A DNA stretch of 38,271 nt from Candidatus Bathyarchaeota archaeon (GTDB taxonomy: Archaea > Thermoproteota > Bathyarchaeia > Bathyarchaeales > Bathyarchaeaceae), in the NCBI GenBank assembly GCA_029879825.1, contig JAOUPL010000001.1, positions 1 through 38,271 of the forward strand, read 5' to 3'. The notes beneath the pieces were generated by a model that was not told where the DNA came from, did no database searches, and was given only the letters and a program-made list of their open reading frames with translations. Position 1 is the first letter of the stretch. Every line of letters begins with the position of its first letter. Both the position numbers and the translations under genes were made by a program. Shown here in pieces: positions 4,507-38,271 of the stretch.

Positions 4507-4652
4507 CGCGCGCGTAATAGTTTATGACGTTAATAAATTGTTTATCTCGTTTATTATATCATCTTGAAGACTTTTCACGGTCTAGGCTTATCTGCAGGAG
4601 GCAACATTAGAGTTTTTAAGAGGCACTTAATTAGTGATTTGAGGGTTTCTGG

Positions 4653-5828
4653 ATGAGAACTCTAGACGGAGTCAGAGTATTAGACCTAACTAGGCTGTTG
4701 CCTGGAGGCTATTGCACAATGATACTGGGCGATATGGGAGCCGAAGTCATTAAGGTTGAAGAACCTAGCTTAGGCGACTACATACGTTGGGTGCCCCCGC
4801 TCATAAAGGGTCAAAGTGTCTCTCACCTAATGCTGAACAGGAACAAGAAAAGTCTGAAACTGAACCTGAAGTCTGAGAAGGGCAAAGAGGTTTTCTATAA
4901 GTTAGTGGAAAGGTCCGATGTAGTTATCGAATGCTTCAGACCAGGAGTTGTCAAAAGACTCGGCATCGATTACGAGTCTGTCATTAAGGTTAACCAACGC
5001 ATAGTTTATTGTTCAATGTCTGGCTATGGTCAGGATGGACCCTATAGAGACTTGCCAGGACACGATGTAAACTACATAGGCTATGGGGGGGTCCTTGGCA
5101 TAACCGGCCAATCCGGTGAGACTCCTGTAATACCAGGCGTTCAAATCGCGGACTTGACCACGGGCCTTATGACGGTTATGGCGATACTCGCTGCCCTCTT
5201 GGCGCGAGAGAAAATGGGAAGAGGGCAATACATTGACGTATCCTTCCTTGATGTTGTCGCTTCTCTGATAGTCTTACCTGCAGCCTTCTATGTTGGTGAC
5301 GGAAGGCCCCCGAAACGTGGCGAGTGGTTGTTGAATGGTGGTTTTCCCTGCTATAACGTCTATGAGGCCAAAGATGGGAAGTATATAACCATAGGATGCC
5401 TAGAAGAGGAATTTTGGGCTAGCCTCTGTAGGGCCTTGAACGTAACCGACTTCATCAAATACCAGTATACCACCGACGATGCTAAGCTCAAGGAGATGTT
5501 TCAAACCATCAAGAAAATTTTCAAAAGAAGAACTCTGAGCGAGTGGATTAAGTTTTTGTCAAAGGAGGATGTGCCGTGTGGACCTGTCTTCGACATGGAC
5601 GAGGTGTTCAAGGATCCTCAGATATTGCATAGGAAGATGGTTGTGGAAGTTGAGTATCCAGGCGTGGGCAAAATCAAACAACTCGGCACGCCAATGAAAT
5701 TCTCTGAAACCCCTTGTGAGATTAGGAGTCCCCCTCCATCCTTCGGAGAACACACAGAGGAAATTTTGAAGTGGCTTGGTTACGCTGAGGCAGAAATACT
5801 GAGCATGCAGCAGGAAGGCGTCACGTAA
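4653..5828 (+). CDS. Family III CoA-transferase (CaiB/BaiF, acyl-CoA racemase-like)
   Basis: The N-terminus GVRVLDLTRLLPGGYCTMILGDMGAEVIKVE is the family signature. 391 aa. Confidence 0.8.
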   Translation: MRTLDGVRVLDLTRLLPGGYCTMILGDMGAEVIKVEEPSLGDYIRWVPPLIKGQSVSHLMLNRNKKSLKLNLKSEKGKEVFYKLVERSDVVIECFRPGVVKRLGIDYESVIKVNQRIVYCSMSGYGQDGPYRDLPGHDVNYIGYGGVLGITGQSGETPVIPGVQIADLTTGLMTVMAILAALLAREKMGRGQYIDVSFLDVVASLIVLPAAFYVGDGRPPKRGEWLLNGGFPCYNVYEAKDGKYITIGCLEEEFWASLCRALNVTDFIKYQYTTDDAKLKEMFQTIKKIFKRRTLSEWIKFLSKEDVPCGPVFDMDEVFKDPQILHRKMVVEVEYPGVGKIKQLGTPMKFSETPCEIRSPPPSFGEHTEEILKWLGYAEAEILSMQQEGVT

Positions 5829-7655: not shown

Positions 7656-8129
7656 ATGCTAACAAAAAAGAAGAGGTGGACGGAGAAATTGGCAGATAGT
7701 AAGGGTCTGCCGAAAGTGGAAAAAATCACTGATAAAATGAGCAAAAGATGGGGCACAGGCACAGTTGTTATCCCCGCGCCGATTGAAGTCGATGAAATGA
7801 TGAGAAAAGTGCCTGAGGGAAAACTTGTTACCATTAATGAAATTCGTGCGGCGCTAGCGAAAAAACACAAGGCAACGATTGGTTGCCCTATGACAACTGG
7901 TATTTTTGCTTGGGTTGCGGCTCATGCTGCTGAAGAACAAAGACAAGAGGGTGAAAAAGATGTTACCCCTTACTGGCGTACCTTGAAAACTGGTGGAGTG
8001 ATAAACGCGAAATATCCCGGCGGAGTCGAAGGACAGAAAAAACTCTTGGAAAAAGAGGGGCATAAAGTAGTTAAAAAAGGCAAAAAACATATCATCGCCG
8101 ATTACGAAACAACGTTGATAAAGCTTTAG
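7656..8129 (+). CDS. MGMT/ATL-family DNA-binding domain protein
   Basis: ATG at 7656 preceded by AAGGAGG. VTINEIRAALAKKH...CPMTTG...PYWRTLK resembles the MGMT-family wHTH. The upstream part of track ORF 7515.. looks non-coding. Confidence 0.55.
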   Translation: MLTKKKRWTEKLADSKGLPKVEKITDKMSKRWGTGTVVIPAPIEVDEMMRKVPEGKLVTINEIRAALAKKHKATIGCPMTTGIFAWVAAHAAEEQRQEGEKDVTPYWRTLKTGGVINAKYPGGVEGQKKLLEKEGHKVVKKGKKHIIADYETTLIKL

Positions 8130-11719: not shown

Positions 11720-12038
11720 GGCGGCGGGTCTTAGGCGGGGGGCTAGGGGTCCCCTGAACCGTAAACCCTCTATAGGACGGGCTGAGAGCCTTGGCGAGGC
11801 GTCAAAGATCGTCAGGATTCCCCAGTCCTCTAACCTTGACTATCCGTCCCTTGGGGCTGGCGGTCGTGGAGCAACCTTCGTAGGGAGGCTGTGGACCGCG
11901 TTTGCCAGGCGAACCTGGCCAGGCCCGGGAGGGAGCAACCTAAGCTTGGACGTTCAGCGCTTGAGGGGTTGCGGGTACGAGTAAAGAGGTTGAGGAAACT
12001 GGCGAAAACTGGGTTTCGAACCAAGGTGACTCGCCGCC
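11720..12038 (+). ncRNA. Signal recognition particle 7S RNA
   Basis: About 319 nt and GC-rich. The termini pair (GGCGGCGGGTC / GACTCGCCGCC). Alu-domain-like GGGCTAGGGG near the 5' end. Helix-8 motif CCAGGCCCGGGAGGGAGCAACC. ORFs on both strands here are GC artefacts. Confidence 0.8.
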
Positions 12039-29796: not shown

Positions 29797-30918
29797 CTAC
29801 TGTCCAATACCTATCGTGTTCCCGATGCCCGCTATTATAACTACGTCTCCCTCCTTTGTCCTTTCCAGAAGCAGCCTCTTAATTCGTTGAATCGCCGTAT
29901 CCGCGGCGTCGAATACTTCTTTTCGCATAGGAGAAACAGCGTCTCCGATGTCTTGCTTGATAATGACGGCATTCACAGGAATCTTGTATTTAAGCACCGA
30001 TTCCTCTATCTTGAATTGGTCGACTCCTGGCCCACCGATAGCTGCACCTACTCCCTCAGCCACATCGCCAGGTTTCTCTCCTTCAAGCTTTTGTGCAGCA
30101 TCTATCATAACTATTGTGGCAATCTTTCCCTTAGTTTCGTTTATGATCTTTATTATCCCATCTCCAGGTTTACCCACGGTTCCACCCGGGCCTTCTGACT
30201 TCAGAACGTGTGCTATTCGGCCTTCTAGGGGCACTGTGGCTGCAACAATGTCCTTGGCTATCTTTCTTGTTTTATGTCCATGCATCAGTTTAGCGGCGAC
30301 GAGAGCACCTGCTCCGTCACCTATGGGTTGACCAGTTGCGAAGGCCTTTAGAGCGCTGGCGAAGGCTTCTGCTTCTTTCATAATCAGAGGTAAAACCATT
30401 TGAAGTTGCATGATTATGTAGAGGCTCAGGGTTTTTTTGCCGAGTATATAGAAATGCCTTATAACCTTGTAGATAATGTGTAGTGCCATGGCAGCCTCAA
30501 GAGTGTTTTCCAAATTATTCAATTGTACTTCATCTGCTTCCGGCGCCATGAGCTTAACTTCATCCTTAAAGCGAACATCTCGAACGTCCAACAAGTGGTC
30601 CAGTTTCCAAACTATGCCTGAAGGATCCATACTCTGAGGAGTTATGGCTATGTATTCCAAAAATTGGTCAACCCTCTCGGTGGGGTCTTCCGGAGGTTTT
30701 CCTATTTCCTTTATTGTCTCCATGGTCAGCTTCCGCCCTTCGTCTCTTATGAATTTGAGGCGGTGCAGATGTTTTTCAACGTCCCTCAGCATGACGGTCA
30801 TTTGGAAGCGTTGCCCATAAAACATGAAAAACACGAAAAAACCGAGCCAAGCTATTTGTAAAACCCATCCTATAATATCGCTTCCGCCCGGGAACAACTG
30901 AGAAACTTGTGAAATCAT
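29797..30918 (-). CDS. Conserved archaeal membrane-anchored protein (DUF1512-like)
   Basis: 373 aa with one N-terminal TM helix. The family assignment is from memory only. Confidence 0.45.
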   Translation of the reverse strand: MISQVSQLFPGGSDIIGWVLQIAWLGFFVFFMFYGQRFQMTVMLRDVEKHLHRLKFIRDEGRKLTMETIKEIGKPPEDPTERVDQFLEYIAITPQSMDPSGIVWKLDHLLDVRDVRFKDEVKLMAPEADEVQLNNLENTLEAAMALHIIYKVIRHFYILGKKTLSLYIIMQLQMVLPLIMKEAEAFASALKAFATGQPIGDGAGALVAAKLMHGHKTRKIAKDIVAATVPLEGRIAHVLKSEGPGGTVGKPGDGIIKIINETKGKIATIVMIDAAQKLEGEKPGDVAEGVGAAIGGPGVDQFKIEESVLKYKIPVNAVIIKQDIGDAVSPMRKEVFDAADTAIQRIKRLLLERTKEGDVVIIAGIGNTIGIGQ

Positions 30919-31163: not shown

Positions 31164-31288
31164 GGGGTTGCCAGCTTTCCCGACTTCGCGTGGCCGAAGA
31201 CCACACTAACACCGGAAACGGAGCGCGGTTTAACTTCTGAGTTCGGAATGGGATCAGGTGGGTCCCGCGCCCTATGGCCGGCAACCCC
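31164..31288 (-). rRNA. 5S ribosomal RNA (stand-alone)
   Basis: The reverse strand reads GGGGTTGCCGGCCATAGGGCGCGGGACCCACCTGATCCCATTCCGAACTCAGAAGTTAAACCGCGC...GCTGGCAACCCC. The termini pair. 125 nt. Confidence 0.85.
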
Positions 31289-31376: not shown

Positions 31377-31599
31377 GGGGCCGTAGTCTAGCTACGCCTC
31401 GTCATCTGATGAGGCGCTGGAAAGGGATGACGACAGTTGATGCGAAGTAGTGTCAACCGTTAAGGGCTCCAGAACAGAATTCACGGGTTTGCTGACCGTG
31501 TCGGGATGAAGAAATTCTGGAGCGGTGAAGAAACCCGTAGGAACGGGGATGAACTGTTCCGGGTAAAGGTCGTCGGTTCAAATCCGGCCGGCCCCACCA
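31377..31599 (+). tRNA. tRNA-Trp (anticodon CCA) with encoded CCA and about four intervening sequences
   Basis: Acceptor GGGGCCG/CGGCCCC, A73, CCA. T arm GTCGG-TTCAAAT-CCGGC. Anticodon loop CTCCAG|A at 31467-31472 + 31533. The stem AC..GGG/CCCGT needs removal of about 31435-31463. Other inserts lie at about 31393-31417 (D loop hairpin), 31473-31532 (37/38) and about 31540-31567 (variable loop). Exons sum to about 78 nt. Confidence 0.65.
31473..31532 (+). ncRNA. Box C/D-like guide element inside the tRNA-Trp 37/38 intron
   Basis: The order is a 12-nt guide, D' CUGA (31492-95), C' AUGAAGA (31506-12), a 12-nt guide, then D-like GUGA (31525-28). The fifth guide nt upstream of D pairs with C34. 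The fifth upstream of D' pairs with nt 39. Box C is degenerate. Confidence 0.5.
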
Positions 31600-32495
31600 C
31601 AAGCCGAACCGGCCCCGCCCGCGCGAAGATCTTCGGCACACTGTGGGAGCTGAAGAAGCGGGGCTACTGCGACATCACCTTGAAGACGAAAGGCGAACGC
31701 CTGAGGTTTCTGGCAAGGCACGTGGACCTGGATGACCCGGAGGCTGTGAAAGGGTTCATCGCAGAACAAACAAGCTGGTCCAATGGCTACAAACAGAGCG
31801 TAGCATACGCTTACGACAACTATGTGAAAACCAACGGCTTGCATTGGACTCTGCCACACTTCCGAGTGGAAGATAAACTGCCCAAGATTCCAACCGAGGA
31901 AAAAATCAACCAGATAATCGTAAGGGCCAGAGGCAAATATGTCCTGGTTTTCAGCATCCTCCGGGACACCGGCATGAGGCCCATCGAACTCGAAAGGACC
32001 AAAGTTAGAGACATAGACTTGGATACAGGAGTTATCACCGTCCGCACGGCGAAAGGCGGCTTAGGACGATCACTGAAGGTGAAGACGCAGACGCTGGCCA
32101 TGCTGAAGGAATACCTCGGGAAGCACGGCTTCGGGCTGAACGACCAGCCTTTTCCGAAGAGGAAGAAGATGACGGGGCGCTGGGTCAGGCTGAGGAACAC
32201 GGTCGCGGGGAAGCTGAAGGACGCCTCTTTCAGGGCGATCAGGCTCTACGACCTGAGGCACTTCGTCGGGACGACGACCTACCACAGGACCAAGGACATA
32301 GTCTACACCCAGAGGGTGCTGGGGCACAGGAGCCTGAAGAACACGATGAGGTATGTCCAACTGATAGACTTTGAAGAAGATGAGTTTACTTCTGCGGTAG
32401 CTAGGAACTTACAGGAAGCTTGCCAACTGATAGAAGTTGGCTTCGAATACGTAACAGAAATAGACGGTGCAAAACTATTCAGGAAAAGAAAGTAG
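31506..32495 (+). CDS. Tyrosine recombinase / integrase (probably the C-terminal part of an SSV-type integrase)
   Basis: Catalytic pattern TGMRPIEL (R), TAKGG (K), LYDLRHF (RH), LGHRS (H), MRYV (Y). The frame is open from 31464 through the tRNA 3' exon. The track ATG at 31506 sits inside the tRNA intron. The first start after the tRNA is TTG at 31680. Confidence 0.75.
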   Translation: MKKFWSGEETRRNGDELFRVKVVGSNPAGPTTSRTGPARAKIFGTLWELKKRGYCDITLKTKGERLRFLARHVDLDDPEAVKGFIAEQTSWSNGYKQSVAYAYDNYVKTNGLHWTLPHFRVEDKLPKIPTEEKINQIIVRARGKYVLVFSILRDTGMRPIELERTKVRDIDLDTGVITVRTAKGGLGRSLKVKTQTLAMLKEYLGKHGFGLNDQPFPKRKKMTGRWVRLRNTVAGKLKDASFRAIRLYDLRHFVGTTTYHRTKDIVYTQRVLGHRSLKNTMRYVQLIDFEEDEFTSAVARNLQEACQLIEVGFEYVTEIDGAKLFRKRK

Positions 32496-32509
32496 CTTTG
32501 TGCACCTAC

Positions 32510-32522
32510 CATGCATGCATGC
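32510..32522. repeat. CATGCATGCATGC alternating Pu/Py repeat, copy 1
   Basis: Exact 13-mer, repeated at 33526-33538. Shorter versions occur at 32738-32750 and 33710-33721. Confidence 0.8.
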
Positions 32523-32735
32523 GATTCGCATACGCCCTGCCCGGTTTCTTCCCGCCCCCCTGCGCAGGACTTAGTTAGAGCAAATAACATGTTAACGCGC
32601 ACGCGATGCAAACAGTTGGAGAGCTTTTTGAAAACCTAGGGGAAAAACCAGGGAGCTAAGTGAAAACATCGACCTGTATCACAAACTGATACTCTCAAGA
32701 ATGAAACCTACGAAAGACGAGTAATATCCAGTTCT

Positions 32736-33482
32736 GTGCGCATGCATGCAAAAAACGACTTGCGCGCGTGTATGAAACAAGAAAACGTTTGTATACCACC
32801 TGTTGAAACATTGTTATATAGTCAGGTGATTTTATTGGCTGAAAAATGGGATGGAGTGGCATTTCTGAAAAATCGTATTGAAGCAATAGACCAACAATGG
32901 GTTGAAAATGTTCGGAAGACCAAATTCTTTCGAGTGGGTGCCTTTAATCTTCCCCACATGGAACCACAATTGAGACAGGTATATATGGATACTTATTTTA
33001 TCACAATGATGGGTTTTTGGAATGTTTCCATAATAATGCAAGGTGTGTTGTTGGAAACTTTGGTCAAAGAGATAATATTTGCAAAAGAGAAGAAAGAGTT
33101 CCAAAAGCCTTTTGGTGACGCCATTGATAGGTGTGAAAAGAAAGGTTACCTAAGCGATGAAGAGATCAGATTTTTGAGGCGATTCAAGGACGAGATTAGG
33201 AACCCCTATCAACATGTAGATGTCAAGAAGATAGTTGGAGAAAGCAAAGTTCGTGCATGGAAGATCTCGCTTAAAAAGGGCAAAGTAGCGGAGTCATTAC
33301 TTAAAGGGGTCGAAAAAGTGTTTAGAGAAGATGCTGGCCATGGCGAGTTGAAAGGTTATGAAGATATGAGACCCGTTGGAGTAGTCATTAAAGATGAGAT
33401 TGACAGACGATTGGCATTGCCTCTTTTCGGTCAAGTTGAAAAATTAGTTAGAAGTTTGTCAACAAAACATTTCAAGGTATAA
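32736..33482 (+). CDS. Hypothetical protein (weak DUF4145-like C-terminal motif)
   Basis: 248-aa ORF; the real start is probably ATG 32772. FLRRFKDEIRNPYQH resembles the RN..H signature of DUF4145, from memory only. Confidence 0.4.
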   Translation: MRMHAKNDLRACMKQENVCIPPVETLLYSQVILLAEKWDGVAFLKNRIEAIDQQWVENVRKTKFFRVGAFNLPHMEPQLRQVYMDTYFITMMGFWNVSIIMQGVLLETLVKEIIFAKEKKEFQKPFGDAIDRCEKKGYLSDEEIRFLRRFKDEIRNPYQHVDVKKIVGESKVRAWKISLKKGKVAESLLKGVEKVFREDAGHGELKGYEDMRPVGVVIKDEIDRRLALPLFGQVEKLVRSLSTKHFKV

Positions 33483-33525
33483 CAAGGCGCGCGCGTTAGA
33501 CTCACTTTCCTTTGTCCCAGTAATT

Positions 33526-33538
33526 CATGCATGCATGC
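33526..33538. repeat. CATGCATGCATGC alternating Pu/Py repeat, copy 2
   Basis: Identical to 32510-32522. The two copies flank ORF 32736..33482. Confidence 0.8.
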
Positions 33539-33806
33539 TTGCTATATCCACACAAAGTTCACACGAAACCCTTCCAGACCCCCGCACACAAACCTTCATG
33601 TTGACAAACCTAGTGGTAATCTTTTCTATTGTTAGTCTAGCTTTTCTTTTTGCGTCAAGAACAGAATTTGCATCGCATGTGCAAGAATTGTGCTAGAAGC
33701 ACGCCTAATCATGCATGCGCGAACGACACATTATAATTTATAATACTTTTTCTAAATTCACAAACTATATTTCTAATTTCTTGAATATTCCAGAAAGGTT
33801 GAGCAA

Positions 33807-34214
33807 TTGAGACTATCAGAATTTATGCACATGCATAAAGGCGTAATCATCGTTCTCGGATTAATCATCGTTGTGGCAGTTGGATACATCGCAGTTAATC
33901 CCAATATAATTGGATTACCTACGCAAATAAGAATCATGGACGGAACTTGGGAAGATATAACCTTTCATGGACACGAATATCGGATTCTAGTAGAAAAAAG
34001 TGAACCAGTTACGTTTGCTAATTTTTCTTCAAGTAATTCTTCTTCATGGATTTTGTATATTTTCCTTACTGAAGGCTGGGATTTCCCAAGAATTGGAGAT
34101 GGAACATATCCAAATATCAAAGAAGGAGACATTATCTTCTACAAAGGTGTGAACATTAAAGTCAACAATATCGATGACTATAGTGTAACATTGTTGGTTA
34201 GTTGGGGAGAATGA
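33807..34214 (+). CDS. Small membrane-anchored / secreted hypothetical protein
   Basis: N-terminal TM helix GVIIVLGLIIVVAVGYIAV. Likely ATG at 33825. Confidence 0.4.
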   Translation: MRLSEFMHMHKGVIIVLGLIIVVAVGYIAVNPNIIGLPTQIRIMDGTWEDITFHGHEYRILVEKSEPVTFANFSSSNSSSWILYIFLTEGWDFPRIGDGTYPNIKEGDIIFYKGVNIKVNNIDDYSVTLLVSWGE

Positions 34215-34257
34215 TGTTTCGCGTGCGTCTTTCCATTAACCGTTAACCGTTGTCCGT

Positions 34258-34276
34258 GGTGGTGGTGGGTGGTGGG
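34258..34276 (+). repeat. (GGT)n G-rich tract
   Basis: GGTGGTGGTGGGTGGTGGG, preceded by tandem TTAACCG x2 at 34236-34249. Confidence 0.7.
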
Positions 34277-34645
34277 TCAAATTTTAACCGCCAAAAGCGT
34301 GCGCTCAGGAGTTAGCCACAGCCCGCAACCAACACACTCGTAAACTCCCGGGGTGCCTCGGACCCAGCCCGCTGTATTTTGGGATGTTGCCCAAGGGTGT
34401 CTGCGGGTTCCGCGTGGAGGGATATACCTGCAGACACATCAACAATGGTAGTTGCATTGAGTCAAATTTCCGGGGAAAACAGCATTAAGTAAAATGGGGG
34501 CCCCAAACTAGAAACCAAATGGAAAGGCCGCGGATTTTGACGCGCGCGCACACGCGAAACAGCTAAAGTGCCCACTTAGATAATTTAATAAATACTTGGA
34601 AATAAGTAGCATTTGTAGTTTAGACGTGTAGGTTGGTCTTGGGTT

Positions 34646-35284
34646 TTGGTCGAAGAAGCTCTTGTTTTTTGGGTCGGAGCGGCGATATTCGGATTCACCT
34701 CATTGATGTTTGCTGCATTAGAAAAGCGAGGACATGGTGGCGAAATGGTTTTCGGATCCAATATCTTTGTAAGTTTTATCACAACGATCTCGTACGTAGT
34801 CATGGCTTTGGCGTTAGGTACTACAATTGCAGAGAATGGACAACCAATCTATTGGACAAGATGGCTTTTCTACATCGCCAGTTGTAGCATACTAACCCTG
34901 GACATCGCCTTCATCGCACGAAAGCCAGCTTCCAAAAAGGTTGAAGTCGCGTTATTCACTGGACTTACAATGTTCTGCGGTTTCTTGGCAAGCATAATTG
35001 TCACGGCTGATCGTTGGTGGTTCTTTGCTCTAAGTACGGCCGCTTATTTCGGCGTGCTCTACACACTATCTAAACGATTAGGAGATGAGAGCGTCAACGT
35101 AACCTCCATAATGTGGTTTGTGATGGTAACTTGGTCTCTGTTTCCAGTAGTTTGGGTGCTTGCGCCAACTGGCTTTGGAGTTCTCACGACATTTGTTGAG
35201 GCTATACTCTATCTTGCACTCGACCTAATAACCAAGGTAGCTTTCGGCTTGTATATTTCAGCACGACAGGACATTGGCAAGTAA
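34646..35284 (+). CDS. Type-1 microbial rhodopsin, schizorhodopsin-like (F-S-D motif)
   Basis: Seven TM segments. PIYWTRWLFYIASCSILTLD aligns to bacteriorhodopsin PIYWARYADWLFTTPLLLLD. WSLFPVVW aligns to WSAYPVVW. LDLITKVAFG aligns to LDVSAKVGFG, giving the Schiff-base Lys with Asp at K-4. TTG start. Confidence 0.8.
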   Translation: MVEEALVFWVGAAIFGFTSLMFAALEKRGHGGEMVFGSNIFVSFITTISYVVMALALGTTIAENGQPIYWTRWLFYIASCSILTLDIAFIARKPASKKVEVALFTGLTMFCGFLASIIVTADRWWFFALSTAAYFGVLYTLSKRLGDESVNVTSIMWFVMVTWSLFPVVWVLAPTGFGVLTTFVEAILYLALDLITKVAFGLYISARQDIGK

Positions 35285-35403
35285 CAATCATAATCAAGCG
35301 CGCGCATGAATACTGTGCAAGTTTAGCATCCGACCTACATCGCTAAAATACATCTTGCTAGTAACCAAAACACAGTTATAACCTCTGCATTCTACATTAC
35401 TTT

Positions 35404-35919
35404 ATGGTCAAAGAAGTGAAATATAGCCTCATCAAAAAACTAGACAATGTGGAAATCAGGCTCTACAACAGCTTGATAATCGCCAAAGTTGACGGTTATG
35501 GTGATGCAGGCTTTAACCTTCTCTTCAACTATATCACAGGCAACAATACTCAAAAAACCACTTTAGAAATGACTTCACCCGTAATATCACAAAACATTGA
35601 AATGACTGCTCCCGTCCTATCAGAAAAAGACTCGATAGCATTCGTTATGCCTGAAAAATACACCTTGGAAACAACACCAAAACCTAATGATGAACGAATC
35701 AAAATCCAACAAATCCCAGAAAGATATGTAGCCGCACTAAGATTCAGCGGTCGCTGGACACCTTCAAATTTCGCAAAAAAATCAAAACAACTATTAAAAG
35801 AACTACAAACAGCAAAAATAAAAACAAGAGGAAACATTTTTGCAATGCGTTACAGCGGACCCTTCACACCATGGTTCATGCGGAAAAACGAAGTAGCAAC
35901 AGAAGTCCAACTCACCTAG
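35404..35919 (+). CDS. SOUL haem-binding family protein
   Basis: VEIRLY..., GFNLLFNYITGNN...LEMTSPV...IEMTAPV, and RFSG pattern. 171 aa. Confidence 0.75.
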   Translation: MVKEVKYSLIKKLDNVEIRLYNSLIIAKVDGYGDAGFNLLFNYITGNNTQKTTLEMTSPVISQNIEMTAPVLSEKDSIAFVMPEKYTLETTPKPNDERIKIQQIPERYVAALRFSGRWTPSNFAKKSKQLLKELQTAKIKTRGNIFAMRYSGPFTPWFMRKNEVATEVQLT

Positions 35920-36112
35920 AACTCTATACCTGCGCGTTCGATTTGGGTATGTGTGGGTGGTTAATTTTCAATCACTTACACTAGCTGGCATGCGTACGCA
36001 GGGCTGAAAAAACATATTGGTAGCGCGCACTTTTCTTGAACACAAGTATCTTAGCGATACTGTGCATGCAGATCGCAAGTCATAAAAGCAGTCTCATACA
36101 GACTTTAGGAAC

Positions 36113-36937
36113 ATGAATAGAACAGAAAGATTAGAGAATATTGCGAAATCACCGATTTCATTTGGCTATCTTAGAAAGTTCAACATGGGAGCAGGCATTC
36201 TTCATTTTGCTCAAGGAATAGTTATGGTAGCTCTTGGGCTTTCTAAAGCCTACAACCGTGACATATTCACTTTCTATTTGAAGTTCAACATAGTGAGCAC
36301 TGACCCGCCCGTTATCCAAGTTGGGCCAGACCCTAAAATCCTGCTGACAATAGGCTACATAGGAGTCGTGGCCGCTCTCTTTCCCCTAATCTCTGCAATA
36401 GCACATTTCACAATCGCGTTTGCGAAGAACAATGCCTACAATGAAAATCTGAAAAAGGGCATGAACCCATACAGATGGTACGAATATGCCCTTTCAAGCT
36501 CAATAATGATATTCCTCATCGCTTCGTTCGTAGGAGTGTGGGAGCTATGGTCACTCGTGATGATATTTGTCTTGAACGCAATGATGATAATGTTCGGATA
36601 TCTTATGGAGAAAATCAATCAGTACACTGAAAAGACTGATTGGTCATCATTCATCCTTGGATGCATTTCAGGCGGAACACCCTGGATAGCGATATACGCT
36701 TATTTCATCGCAGCCATAAGCAGCGTGTCGCAGAACGTTCCCACATTTGTGTACCTGATACTGTTCATCTACTTCATTCTGTTCAACATCTTCGCAGTCA
36801 ACATGGTGTTGCAATACAAAGGCATCGGAAGGTGGAAGGATTACCTTTACGGCGAAAGAATCTACATAATCCTGAGCTTCGTTGCAAAAAGCATTCTGGC
36901 TTGGCTGGTATTCGTAGGAATCTATGCACCTTTCTAG
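36113..36937 (+). CDS. Heliorhodopsin
   Basis: Closely parallels my recollection of HeR 48C12. NPYRWYEYALSSSIMIFLIA matches NIFRWVEYSLSSSVMIVLIA. LQYKGIGRWKDYLYGERIYIILSFVAKSILAW matches LQYKGKGKWSNYLRGERAYIVLSLVAKSALAW, with the Schiff-base Lys and Glu counterion present. Confidence 0.85.
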   Translation: MNRTERLENIAKSPISFGYLRKFNMGAGILHFAQGIVMVALGLSKAYNRDIFTFYLKFNIVSTDPPVIQVGPDPKILLTIGYIGVVAALFPLISAIAHFTIAFAKNNAYNENLKKGMNPYRWYEYALSSSIMIFLIASFVGVWELWSLVMIFVLNAMMIMFGYLMEKINQYTEKTDWSSFILGCISGGTPWIAIYAYFIAAISSVSQNVPTFVYLILFIYFILFNIFAVNMVLQYKGIGRWKDYLYGERIYIILSFVAKSILAWLVFVGIYAPF

Positions 36938-37122
36938 CAGGCGTACGTACTCCTCAAATCAGACTGTTCCAGTATGCTTGTGAGAGATAGTATAGGTTAC
37001 TATCTGCAAGCACACACATGCGCGCGTGCTAGGTGTATGAATTGTAGGCGGAAGAAAAATATTAAAAGAAATATCACCGACCTACGATTATTACGACTGG
37101 ATTATGAGTGTGATAAAATCAA

Positions 37123-37809
37123 ATGGCAAGCGGTTCGCTCGAATTTCGGGCAACAAACCTTGATTGCCTTTTGGCTCTTGTGATCGCATTCGGCCTACCC
37201 GTGGCGTGCGGGCTCCTGTACCCACTGACGGGCGCACTTGTCCCTCTAACACTGTATTATGGCTTGTGCTGCGTAGGCATCGTGAAGTGGCGGCGTGGAA
37301 CACTTGAGTATCGTCGTCCGAAGACTTGGGCCTTCCCCATTTTTCTGACGATGATCGCAATGCAGCTGATCCAACAGATCATTGGTTTTGTGCTAGTGCA
37401 ACCTGTGCCAAGCCCCGACGCAGTCGGAGTGCTCATCTCCCTTATTGTTTGGGCACCACTCAATGCTTTAATGGAGCAGTTGAGTTGGATCTACTGCTAC
37501 GATGCATTCGCCTCACGCTTCACTAAGAAGAGCCAGAGAATAGTGGGGAACATCGTCGGCCTCGTGTTGATGCTATCTCTAGTTGGACTTATCCATGTGC
37601 TCTTCTGGGCGAAATTCACGCCAGCATATTCACCGATCGGTAGCTTCTTCTTAGTTTTCATGGCCCTGCAATTCGTAACCACCGGTCTCTACATCATGCT
37701 GTATCGAAAAGTCCGCTCCATGATCCCTCTGGCATTAGTTCACATCATATCTGATGCGGGCTTGGTTCTCATTCCAGGATTCTCAATCTTCCCGTACCTT
37801 CTGCCATAG
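37123..37809 (+). CDS. Polytopic membrane protein, degenerate CPBP (CAAX protease)-like
   Basis: At least 6 TM segments. Motif-like MEQLSW (versus EExxxR), VGLIH (FxxxH) and HIISD (HxxxD). The first motif lacks the second Glu and the Arg. Confidence 0.3.
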   Translation: MASGSLEFRATNLDCLLALVIAFGLPVACGLLYPLTGALVPLTLYYGLCCVGIVKWRRGTLEYRRPKTWAFPIFLTMIAMQLIQQIIGFVLVQPVPSPDAVGVLISLIVWAPLNALMEQLSWIYCYDAFASRFTKKSQRIVGNIVGLVLMLSLVGLIHVLFWAKFTPAYSPIGSFFLVFMALQFVTTGLYIMLYRKVRSMIPLALVHIISDAGLVLIPGFSIFPYLLP

Positions 37810-37820
37810 GAACAATCGAG

Positions 37821-38137
37821 CTAGCTAGCTATAACTTGCGCGCGCAGCACGTAGTTCGGGTCCTTGCGCGAGAGGAACCTCCTGACGTGCTCGTATTCGC
37901 GCGCCATGAACTTCCTCAGCCTCGGCACTATCACTCGACTCTCCCCCCTTCCAGCCAATTGCCGCGTTCGTCCGGACGCTCCGACTGCTCCAACTTCTTT
38001 CCATTTTTTAAAAAGTTTTTTTCAGGACTACTCTTAGTTGTAGAATTTTTCATTTCCGTATCACAGTTGGAGCGCTTAAGGTCTATGTTCTCCCATACGC
38101 CGATCCGCTTCCCGTCCACGCGCGCTTTTGGACACAT
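37821..38137 (-). pseudogene. Frameshifted or phase-variable small ORF (unknown function)
   Basis: The 68-aa ORF 37931..38137 ends just after a G6 run (plus-strand C6 at 37943-37948). One extra G would extend it by 37 codons to the stop at 37821-37823. Confidence 0.25.
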
Positions 38138-38147
38138 ATTGTATTGA

Positions 38148-38261
38148 CTAACCAGGTATTTCTGGGAAAAGGATTTTCTTTGTGGGAGCTCTGCAATTAG
38201 GGCACTCTTGCCTATTCACATTGTAAAGGGTCTTACAATATGGACATTCGATTCTGGTCAT
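38148..38261 (-). CDS. Possible 37-aa zinc-ribbon peptide
   Basis: MTRIECPYCKTLYNVNRQECPNCRAP... has CxxC...CxxC. It is below the track threshold and close to the window edge. Confidence 0.3.
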   Translation of the reverse strand: MTRIECPYCKTLYNVNRQECPNCRAPTKKILFPEIPG

Positions 38262-38271
38262 CTCATTGAAA

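Follow-up and report, generated by a model that had tools for sequence, protein, structure and literature searches.

Two rhodopsin genes, one of them in a conserved pair with a SOUL gene, in integrase-associated DNA at a tRNA-Trp gene of Bathyarchaeia

The DNA analyzed here (the window) is a stretch of 38,271 nucleotides (nt) of contig JAOUPL010000001.1 from a Candidatus Bathyarchaeota archaeon, in which a tRNA-Trp gene is followed by a tyrosine integrase gene and six cargo genes on the same strand: two hypothetical genes (hyp1 and hyp2) and the genes for a schizorhodopsin-like protein (SzR), a SOUL/HEBP protein (SOUL), a heliorhodopsin (HeR), and a CPBP-like membrane protein. The locus arose by insertion at tRNA-Trp and is not ancestral, and SzR and SOUL are a conserved linked pair. 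The region from 31600 to at least 38794 is probably all or the left part of a small integrated mobile element that belongs to a Bathyarchaeia-specific family and carries the rhodopsin block in a modular cargo slot; coordinates past the window end refer to JGI contig Ga0224511_10001664, which adds approximately 1.2 kb, to 39462. Judged from its sequence, the integrase appears to work like an archaeal suicidal (SSV-type) enzyme, yet it is not placed in those families.

An earlier reading of the window from its letters alone (the sequence-only reading) had described a tyrosine recombinase directly after tRNA-Trp and six same-strand accessory genes, two of them hypothetical, separated by long spacers. 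The present analysis bears this out: the spliced tRNA is called Trp(CCA), the integrase has a Pfam match, the genes stand in the order described with no family match for hyp1 or hyp2, and the spacers measure 119-431 nt. Profile searches also agree with its SzR-like, SOUL, and HeR assignments.

Insertion at the tRNA-Trp gene

The features at the junction between host and inserted DNA are as follows; loci of the comparison sets are designated by L and a number.

31166-31285, minus strand: 5S rRNA (Rfam RF00001, 77.7 bits), which adjoins DUF1512 in relatives; no conserved host feature lies between it and the tRNA
31377-31599, plus strand: tRNA-Trp(CCA), with exons at 31377-92, 31418-34, 31464-72, 31533-38, and 31567-99
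31567-31599, plus strand: attL core of 33 bp, AGGTCGTCGGTTCAAATCCGGCCGGCCCCACCA, which is the last tRNA-Trp exon and is repeated in siblings as attL/attR
31569-32495, plus strand: int(C), the tyrosine integrase (PF00589) fused in frame to the tRNA 3′ exon, without a promoter or start codon of its own

The host flank of the window is that of Bathyarchaeia, as the DUF1512 protein (29797-30918) is 68-91% identical to its homologues in 80 Bathyarchaeota/Bathyarchaeia genomes. The order of the left flank, i.e., a synthetase (PF00579, TrpRS/TyrRS-like), a flavin reductase, a metallo-beta-lactamase, an M24 peptidase, a 131-aa protein, the DUF1512 protein, 5S rRNA, and tRNA-Trp, is kept across 80 species. 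DNA similarity to the relatives breaks off at the CCA end of the tRNA (31596-31605) in approximately 49 loci, and host synteny extends no further than 31599. In the 80 species, neither the integrase nor a single one of the six cargo genes is encoded within 10 kb at the tRNA-Trp locus; the gene order is thus not that of all relatives, which would have meant an ancestral locus. The sequence 3′ of tRNA-Trp differs even among close relatives, and in the closest species (L013; 95% identity over 5S-tRNA) a T-run begins right after the tRNA; this is an empty site of the kind envisaged in the sequence-only reading. Because the right-flank genes of the relatives have no homologues in the window and are not conserved among the relatives themselves, the right boundary cannot be inferred by synteny. 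Approximately 25 codons of an integrase 5′ end in L024 (CP070754.1) and approximately 9 in L019 remain 3′ of tRNA-Trp, and these stubs are scars of earlier occupants.

The tRNA-Trp(CCA) gene itself starts with GGGGCCGTAGTCTAGC, contains four introns, the number seen in its clade, and ends with the T arm, the acceptor stem, and CCA. Its exons were set by comparison with relatives that have one to three introns (one in L059), and when the four introns are removed by hand, ARAGORN calls an intact tRNA-Trp(CCA). The introns are located in the D loop, on the 5′ side of the anticodon stem, at the canonical position 37/38, and in the variable region; the canonical 37/38 intron is 60 nt long and resembles a box C/D RNA (GGGATGAAGA...CTGGAGC). 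Since it has four introns, the unspliced gene is missed by standard tRNA finders: ARAGORN without intron mode reports nothing, and Rfam has no tRNA match near 31.4-31.6 kb. A tRNA-Pro(agg) called here by ARAGORN in intron mode is spurious, as the relatives and the hand splicing gave tRNA-Trp.

Integrase and its attachment site

PF00589 (1.8e-15) is the sole Pfam match of the integrase at E ≤ 0.1, a search in which PF16795 (Phage_integr_3) was not found, and NCBIfam gave weak XerA-type or integron-type matches under their cutoffs. Its open reading frame (ORF; 31506-32495) spans the tRNA 3′ exon in frame. Most integrase homologues (48-100% identity) carry the sequence (V/A)(V/A)GSNP, the translation of the tRNA T arm, in frame at the N-terminal side and read VVGSNPAGPTT through the tRNA. 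With 308 codons from the attachment site (att) to the stop, int(C) is as long as the corresponding part of the intact homologues, and no ATG, GTG, or TTG is present between the tRNA and its conserved N-terminal region.

The integrase was compared with 80 metagenomic integrase loci, five of which (L113, L114, L118, L121, and L127) contain two copies of the tRNA 3′ end. The repeat (attL/attR) corresponds to the last exon, over 32-33 bp, and its two copies enclose the element at a spacing of 1.8-10.8 kb. In 12 arm-context copies, in which element DNA precedes att, an in-frame ATG is located 9-26 codons upstream of att and the ORF continues into the integrase; a TATA-like TTAAATA is found 68-118 nt upstream of att in most of them. 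The recombination site therefore lies within the integrase gene, and integration removes the promoter and start of the integrase. The attR of L121 is an int(N): it consists of the arm, an ATG, nine codons, and att, and no integrase follows. The int(N)/int(C) split is thus seen in this sibling, and int(C) alone is found in the window.

In the mechanism that we propose, recombination by the integrase would take place at the final tRNA-Trp exon. Before integration, or in tandem copies, the promoter and ATG would stand 9-26 codons upstream of att, with the integrase frame running through att; on integration, int(N), comprising the promoter, the ATG, and the initial codons, would end up at the far end, apart from int(C), which would be left fused in frame to the tRNA.

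The annotated integrase ORF opens at an ATG (31506) inside a tRNA intron, in a box C-like motif, in frame and with no intervening stop. This intron ATG in frame with int(C) is common to all integrated siblings (MKKFWSGEETRR...); it may be due to chance, or it may be a means of expressing int(C) after integration. In addition, tandem arrays at tRNA-Trp with several att copies and full or truncated integrases were observed in L114, L117, L118, and L127, a pattern consistent with repeated integration and with hybrid int genes of the kind described for other suicidal integrases (PMC8371274).

Backbone segments and cargo slots

Close sibling loci, in which the integrase is 74-90% identical to that of the window, are without all six cargo genes and have short collinear segments (A to E) in common with the window. 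The segments and the blocks between them are as follows.

32530-32573, plus strand: segment A, 84-92% identity in L098-L100, L106, L107, L109, L112, L113, and L157
32574-34302, plus strand: extra block 1, with hyp1 (32742-33482) and hyp2 (33807-34214), missing where A adjoins B
34266-34431, plus strand: segment B, with a core of approximately 90 nt (34336-34425), in at least 13 integrase loci
34426-37866, plus strand: extra block 2 (3.44 kb), with the SzR, SOUL, HeR, and CPBP-like genes, delimited by junction alignments
34453-34541: segment C, collinear with sibling integrase loci
37846-37922, plus strand: segment D, 82-88% identity in L098-L100, L106-L108, and L132
38589-38794 (extended coordinates, past the window end), plus strand: segment E, with a small ORF and a CAACCTACTG motif, in at least 10 integrase loci

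Segment A directly adjoins B in L098, L106, and L112, and B directly adjoins D in L106, L108, and L132; therefore, both the hyp1/hyp2 block and the stretch at 34426-37866 are extra in the window. Segment E is located directly 3′ of the integrase in the attP-type loci L102 and L104, and the motif that follows it is invariant. Backbone segments are common to at least 20 integrase loci, and B, D, and E were found in none of 80 integrase-less tRNA-Trp flanks. Mainly because these three segments occur only with integrases, we take the rhodopsin block to lie inside element-derived DNA. Segments A, B, D, and E would accordingly be the conserved backbone that flanks slots filled with different genes in each sibling, and one slot of the window copy would hold the SzR-SOUL pair, HeR, and the CPBP-like gene, each with its own promoter-like box.

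The core of segment B has the pattern TTCGTAAACTCCCrGGGTGCCTC...GATGTTGCCCArGGG and contains no consistent ORF. A gene split by the insertion was considered for segment B and ruled out by in-frame stops that L098 and L108 have at an identical codon position, and an RNA structure obtained weak support from RNAalifold (-9 kcal/mol, covariation term +0.4). The small ORF of segment E (...AGLVAIHPVAEALKDEYFYFAWLLRHEAFLRFDYDPDAVLSEK..GFRE), which corresponds to 12459-12632 of L010 and 38571-38744 of the extended window, has no Pfam match; it may be an element regulator, and it may be inactivated in the window copy.

At the place of the rhodopsins, L112 contains a candidate anti-phage defense gene (4625-5314; PADLOC PDC-M57B, 8e-62). 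This locus was also considered as a rhodopsin-carrying sibling and rejected, since its match to the SzR gene is a 126-nt, 100% identical overlap at the contig end that starts in the middle of the gene and is probably an assembly-graph junction. No match was found for hyp1 or hyp2 in Pfam, NCBIfam, PHROGs, PADLOC, or PDB. The sequence EIRNPYQH in hyp1 is an Rx4H motif that is HEPN-like, a resemblance that is not significant; EIRNRMFH stands at the corresponding position of an unrelated cargo protein from a sibling (L112 2357-2761), whose pairwise similarity to hyp1 is not significant either.

Two further small genes, both on the minus strand, are located 3′ of segment D.

37931-38137, minus strand: 68-aa protein
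within 37931-38271, minus strand, running off the window end: zinc-ribbon membrane protein

The window also contains ordinary host features, namely tRNA-Pro(CGG) at 52-127 and the archaeal SRP RNA at 11722-12036.

Schizorhodopsin-like protein and its SOUL partner

34573-35929, plus strand: SzR-SOUL unit of 1.36 kb, composed of a TATA-like box (TTTAATAAAT, at approximately 34587), SzR, a 119-nt spacer, and SOUL
34646-35284, plus strand: SzR-like rhodopsin (PF01036, 1.9e-28), with schizorhodopsin 4 as its best solved relative
35404-35919, plus strand: SOUL/HEBP protein, 171 aa, cytoplasmic (PF04832, 5.4e-41)

Among PDB entries, the SzR-like protein is closest by E-value, with no tree calculated, to SzR4 (7e4g; 5.8e-39), followed by AntR (7e-26) and other type-1 rhodopsins (1e-21 or weaker). 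The retinal lysine of TM7, Lys197 in the DLITK sequence, is invariant among 106 SzR homologues. The positions that correspond to residues 85, 89, and 96 of bacteriorhodopsin (BR) form an F-S-D motif: Phe75 and Ser79 are as in schizorhodopsins, while position 86 is Asp in place of Glu, a conservative replacement. Within the Bathyarchaeota clade, position 86 is Asp in 94 and Glu in 11 of the 106 sequences. The SOUL domain scores 140.9 bits versus a Pfam gathering score of 27 and covers residues 3-166, and SOUL homologues are 65-95% identical across Bathyarchaeota.

The whole SzR-SOUL unit recurs with the same sharp ends and 84-92% DNA identity in L182/L183, L178, and L185/L186. Altogether, the pair was found in five genomic settings besides the window, in two of which only a remnant of SzR is present, so that SzR or its remnant is directly upstream of SOUL in 6/6 settings sampled. 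The first remnant, in L194 (CP070730.1), is an SzR fragment (residues 80-208) before SOUL, with homology to window positions 34909-35906. The second setting, L187 (CP070828.1), has no SzR gene, and its homology to the window (35243-35921) begins approximately 40 nt inside the SzR 3′ end. There (7845-8000), SOUL stands alone among purine-synthesis genes, and upstream of it the spacer is kept together with these approximately 40 nt. Two explanations are offered: loss of SzR at this site, or a SOUL promoter that extends into the 3′ end of SzR.

The outer neighbors of the pair differ in every setting: MsrA; PPDK and UvdE; a CN-hydrolase; purine-synthesis genes and a glyoxalase; carotenoid genes and UvdE. 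At the loci of more distantly related SzRs (59-77% identity), SOUL is missing. Besides the MsrA gene just named, light-related neighbors were observed in L194 (700-7519 of CP070730.1), i.e., UvdE, lycopene cyclase, an amino-oxidase (phytoene-desaturase-like), and a gene of the fatty-acid-hydroxylase family, and the neighbors in L182 (JBFFIF010000022.1) are HeR, UvdE, and Staygreen (Mg-dechelatase family). In L181 (7040-8639 of CP070828.1), an SzR of 59% identity has as its neighbors a true Rce1-like (CPBP) gene and a gene for an ICMT/PEMT-like methyltransferase; homologues of eukaryotic CAAX-processing enzymes are thus paired beside a rhodopsin.

Heliorhodopsin and CPBP-like protein

36113-36937, plus strand: heliorhodopsin (PF18761, 7.7e-92, 307.5 bits versus a cutoff of 26.7; NF038020 equivalog, 343.4 bits versus 100)
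37123-37809, plus strand: CPBP-like polytopic membrane protein of a rare, divergent CPBP/Rce1-like family

The HeR matches TaHeR (6is6) with an E-value of 4e-55, and its RWYEY and FVAKS sequences align with RWFEY and LVAKS of TaHeR, which contain the counterion Glu and the Schiff-base Lys, respectively. In the window, HeR is 193 nt from SOUL. An HeR gene is also located 2.4-2.5 kb from the SzR-SOUL pair in L182 and L185/186, with approximately 70% identity to that of the window. Since the HeRs near the pair elsewhere are this distant, the 3.44-kb block is itself composite.

The CPBP-like family is represented by 68 matches in 1.84 billion representatives. Its invariant residues are Asn114, Glu118, Trp122, His158, Trp162, and His207; Glu118 (NAxxEQLxW), His158 (GLIH), and His207 (HxxxD) have a CPBP-like spacing, and the second Glu and the Arg of the EExxxR motif are missing. 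PF02517 is matched weakly by 7 of 15 family members (best E-value, 5.4e-6). For the CPBP-like label that the sequence-only reading gave to this protein, the PF02517 match of the window protein itself is weak (17.5 bits) and below the gathering score of 22.4. A PDB profile search gave no match, and a single-sequence AlphaFold2 (AF2) model (pLDDT 53) was too poor. The protein has no detectable similarity to the true Rce1-like neighbor of SzR in L181, and its gene shows no recurrent linkage to SzR-SOUL elsewhere.

Composition and spacer tracts

The composition of the island is a mosaic, heterogeneous rather than uniformly AT-rich. The GC content is 41.9% at 32496-37122 versus 45.7% in the core, in line with the AT-richer region that the sequence-only reading had noticed, but the integrase (52.7%) and the CPBP-like gene (51.1%) are GC-richer. 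The GC content at third codon positions (GC3) is 0.70 for the integrase, 0.38 for hyp1, 0.32 for hyp2, 0.46 for SzR, 0.37 for SOUL, 0.53 for HeR, and 0.59 for the CPBP-like gene, versus 0.484 ± 0.045 in the core, and the tetranucleotide distance (z = 3.3-6.4) is likewise atypical, a statistic that is biased by membrane-protein genes.

The spacers have motifs in common, as the same reading had pointed out: GCGCGCG occurs 8 times after the tRNA versus once before it, and CATGCATG 6 times versus 0. Alternating purine/pyrimidine runs ((CATG)n, (CG)n, or mixed) are present in nearly every island spacer. There are 17 runs of at least 10 nt after the tRNA versus 7 in the preceding 31.6 kb, and mononucleotide shuffles of the island give 7.6 ± 2.8. 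Runs of at least 12 nt have a density of 1.27/kb after versus 0.06/kb before the tRNA in the window, and of 0.76/kb in sibling integrase loci versus 0.11/kb in 1.19 Mb of Bathyarchaeia genome loci. The remaining SzR-SOUL settings are rich in such tracts too, and their homology with the window stops at a tract or right beside one. The leading idea is that the tracts are recombination junctions; block junctions tend to coincide with them, and they may be the points at which blocks are exchanged.

Origin of the inserted region

Several observations weigh against an integrated element that carries the rhodopsin block. The far att and int(N) anticipated in the sequence-only reading did not turn up: no second att copy is present in 31600-39462 as an exact repeat or in a fuzzy search (up to 9 mismatches in 33), and neither an int(N) arm nor an arm-type (TTAGAGGnnATTAAATA-type) promoter was detected in the same interval by arm BLAST and the arm-promoter pattern. 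Flanking direct repeats were not seen in the window copy, for which 7.9 kb is available, so that their absence is not proven; every assembly stops by 39462, at or before a beta-helix repeat gene. A circular form was not found for any element. No rhodopsin, SOUL, or CPBP gene is present in any of the 80 related integrase loci, and elsewhere SzR-SOUL occurs without an integrase within 7-8 kb. The E ORF of the window lacks an in-frame start, its usual ATG being out of frame beside a (CG)n tract, which suggests decay. The GC3 values of SzR and HeR are within the host range, the tetranucleotide signal is subject to the bias stated above, and the CPBP-like protein remains below its family threshold.

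The strongest competing explanation, which we regard as a serious though distinctly less probable one, draws on many of the same points. According to it, the integrase is the dead stump of an old element whose right part was lost, and the rhodopsin genes are ordinary, though rapidly rearranging, host accessory genes of a variable region beside tRNA-Trp that were placed there by homologous or illegitimate recombination and were never borne by the element. The missing attR and int(N) within 7.9 kb, the integrase-free state of SzR-SOUL in all other settings, the host-like GC3, and the lack of rhodopsins in sibling elements would all be expected, and integrase scars in other species show that decay takes place at the tRNA-Trp site; the purine/pyrimidine tracts are frequent in the integrase-free settings as well. 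However, int(C) is undecayed over its full length of 308 codons, the block is nested between B and D, which, like E, were seen only alongside integrases (at least 20 loci) and in none of the 80 flanks without an integrase, and E directly follows the integrase in attP-type loci.

A provirus or provirus end with the rhodopsins as viral auxiliary genes is very improbable. The integrase matches PHROG integrase families, and distant relatives (34-36% identity) are located at the ends of approximately 33-kb contigs of the viral collection (IMG/VR), but close relatives were not found in that collection, no other gene matches PHROGs, capsid, terminase, and portal genes are lacking, and the siblings with both att copies span only 1.8-10.8 kb. 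An assembly chimera at the conserved tRNA, for which many related contigs that break at the tRNA and the end of L112, typical of an assembly-graph junction, might speak, has next to no likelihood, because the order DUF1512-5S-tRNA-Int-...-CPBP was assembled independently in JGI 3300022205, JGI 3300022204, and ENA ERZ27296354, and the part from hyp1 to CPBP also in Logan SRR7134474, with proteins 99.5-100% identical across the independent assemblies.

We therefore retain the integrated element with a modular cargo slot as the favored reading. The integrase-mobilized cargo proposed in the sequence-only reading agrees with the insertion at the tRNA, the att-bounded element family, and the position of the block between backbone segments, while the far att/int(N) and rhodopsins in siblings are wanting; we infer that the integrase moves the photo-genes. 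The photo-module proposed there is supported in part: SzR and SOUL are a conserved pair, the HeR copies nearby in two other settings are only approximately 70% identical, and the CPBP-like gene is not recurrently linked.

Proposed function of the rhodopsin block

SOUL/HEBP proteins bind tetrapyrroles, and heliorhodopsins are slow-cycling and thought to be sensory. To our knowledge, the physiological role of inward proton-pumping rhodopsins (schizorhodopsins and xenorhodopsins) is still open. By analogy, the F-S-D variant SzR would be a light-driven inward proton pump and HeR a slow-cycling light sensor, and SOUL might handle a hydrophobic ligand for SzR, either a photosensitizing tetrapyrrole that is sequestered in the light or scavenged retinal. 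Schizorhodopsins are light-driven inward H+ pumps according to Inoue et al. (2020), as cited in PMC7495880, and rhodopsin-bearing Bathyarchaeota have porphyrin synthesis and incomplete retinal synthesis (Pan et al., PMC7110647). The lineage may have to scavenge retinal, and SOUL could handle the retinal chromophore. A role of SOUL in light stress or chromophore handling is tentatively favored, and we infer from these analogies that SzR, SOUL, and HeR may form a light-response set.

A more far-reaching proposal is that SzR and SOUL form a functional light module (pump and tetrapyrrole/retinoid partner), as a mobile 1.36-kb cassette with Z-DNA-prone tracts as exchange junctions, spread via tRNA-Trp by an unrecognized PF00589-type suicidal integrase family; taken as a whole, it is speculative and rather unlikely. 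The pair itself is the most valuable lead of this study. SOUL stays with SzR through repeated relocation, even beside SzR remnants, which makes it a concrete candidate partner and a first handle on the purpose of the pump. The light-sensing genes of sediment Bathyarchaeia are seen here as accessory cargo that varies among strains and sits at a hot spot of integration, which bears on the spread of phototrophy-related traits in a globally abundant archaeal group.

Comparison with known systems

HeR in Bathyarchaeota (Bathy-6/-8; PMC7110647) and SzR in Bathyarchaeota (PMC7495880) have been reported, and HeR and SzR in one genome are known for Heimdallarchaeia (10.1101/385732). In the searchable literature, we found no report of SzR-SOUL linkage, of rhodopsins inside an integrase-associated island in Bathyarchaeia, of a PF00589-type integrase whose own ORF contains attP, or of the junction tracts.

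Similar to the schizorhodopsins SzR4 (7e4g) and AntR, the SzR of the window is a short seven-transmembrane protein of approximately 200 aa with Phe at the position of BR Asp85, Ser at that of Thr89, and the retinal Lys with a preceding Asp; it differs in the cytoplasmic carboxylate, which is Asp and not Glu (F-S-D versus F-S-E), and in its SOUL partner gene. The SOUL protein is a full-length Pfam SOUL domain with weak direct similarity to HEBP1 (2gov) and HEBP2 (3r8j), whereas it is archaeal, stand-alone, 171 aa long, and always 3′ of SzR or its remnant in the six settings.

Like TaHeR (6is6) and 48C12 (6su3), the HeR is a full-length heliorhodopsin, and it scores above curated cutoffs. Published HeR neighborhoods hold UvdE, carotenoid, and oxidative-stress genes (PMC8612252), and the other Bathyarchaeia SzR-SOUL loci, two of them with HeR, carry genes of the same kinds. 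In contrast, the HeR of the window is in a block with SzR and SOUL inside integrase-associated DNA, and it has no nearby partner gene for a histidine kinase, photolyase, or glutamine synthetase.

The locus resembles tRNA-linked genomic islands and cassette arrays (bacterial integrative islands and integrons) in its tRNA target, the integrase at one end, variable slots between conserved segments, defense-type cargo in one sibling, and atypical composition. It differs from them in that an attC-like imperfect inverted repeat is lacking, that the feature recurring at its junctions is the alternating purine/pyrimidine tract, and that there is no evidence of integrase action at internal junctions. 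The tracts at the junctions are a possible new signature of archaeal gene-cassette exchange. The concept of gene capture for archaeal suicidal elements reportedly goes back to She et al. in 2001 (Nature 409:478; reviewed in PMC8371274).

The closest parallel is with the suicidal (SSV-type) elements SSV1, pTN3, and pT26-2. As in these, attP is inside the integrase ORF, the 3′ part of the tRNA is targeted and the tRNA stays intact, int(N) and int(C) are split with int(C) by the intact tRNA, and direct tRNA repeats, tandem copies, and scars are found. On the other hand, the window enzyme matches PF00589 only, the host belongs to the Bathyarchaeia of estuarine/marine sediment, int(N) is tiny (9-26 codons plus the att residues), att is one exon of a four-intron tRNA, and the window shows int(C) only. 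In all known suicidal integrase families, PF16795 is present, a single origin is proposed, and the hosts listed are Sulfolobales, Thermococcales, and Archaeoglobales (PMC8371274). The integrase of the window would thus extend the suicidal mechanism to another Pfam family and host group and calls the single-origin view into question.

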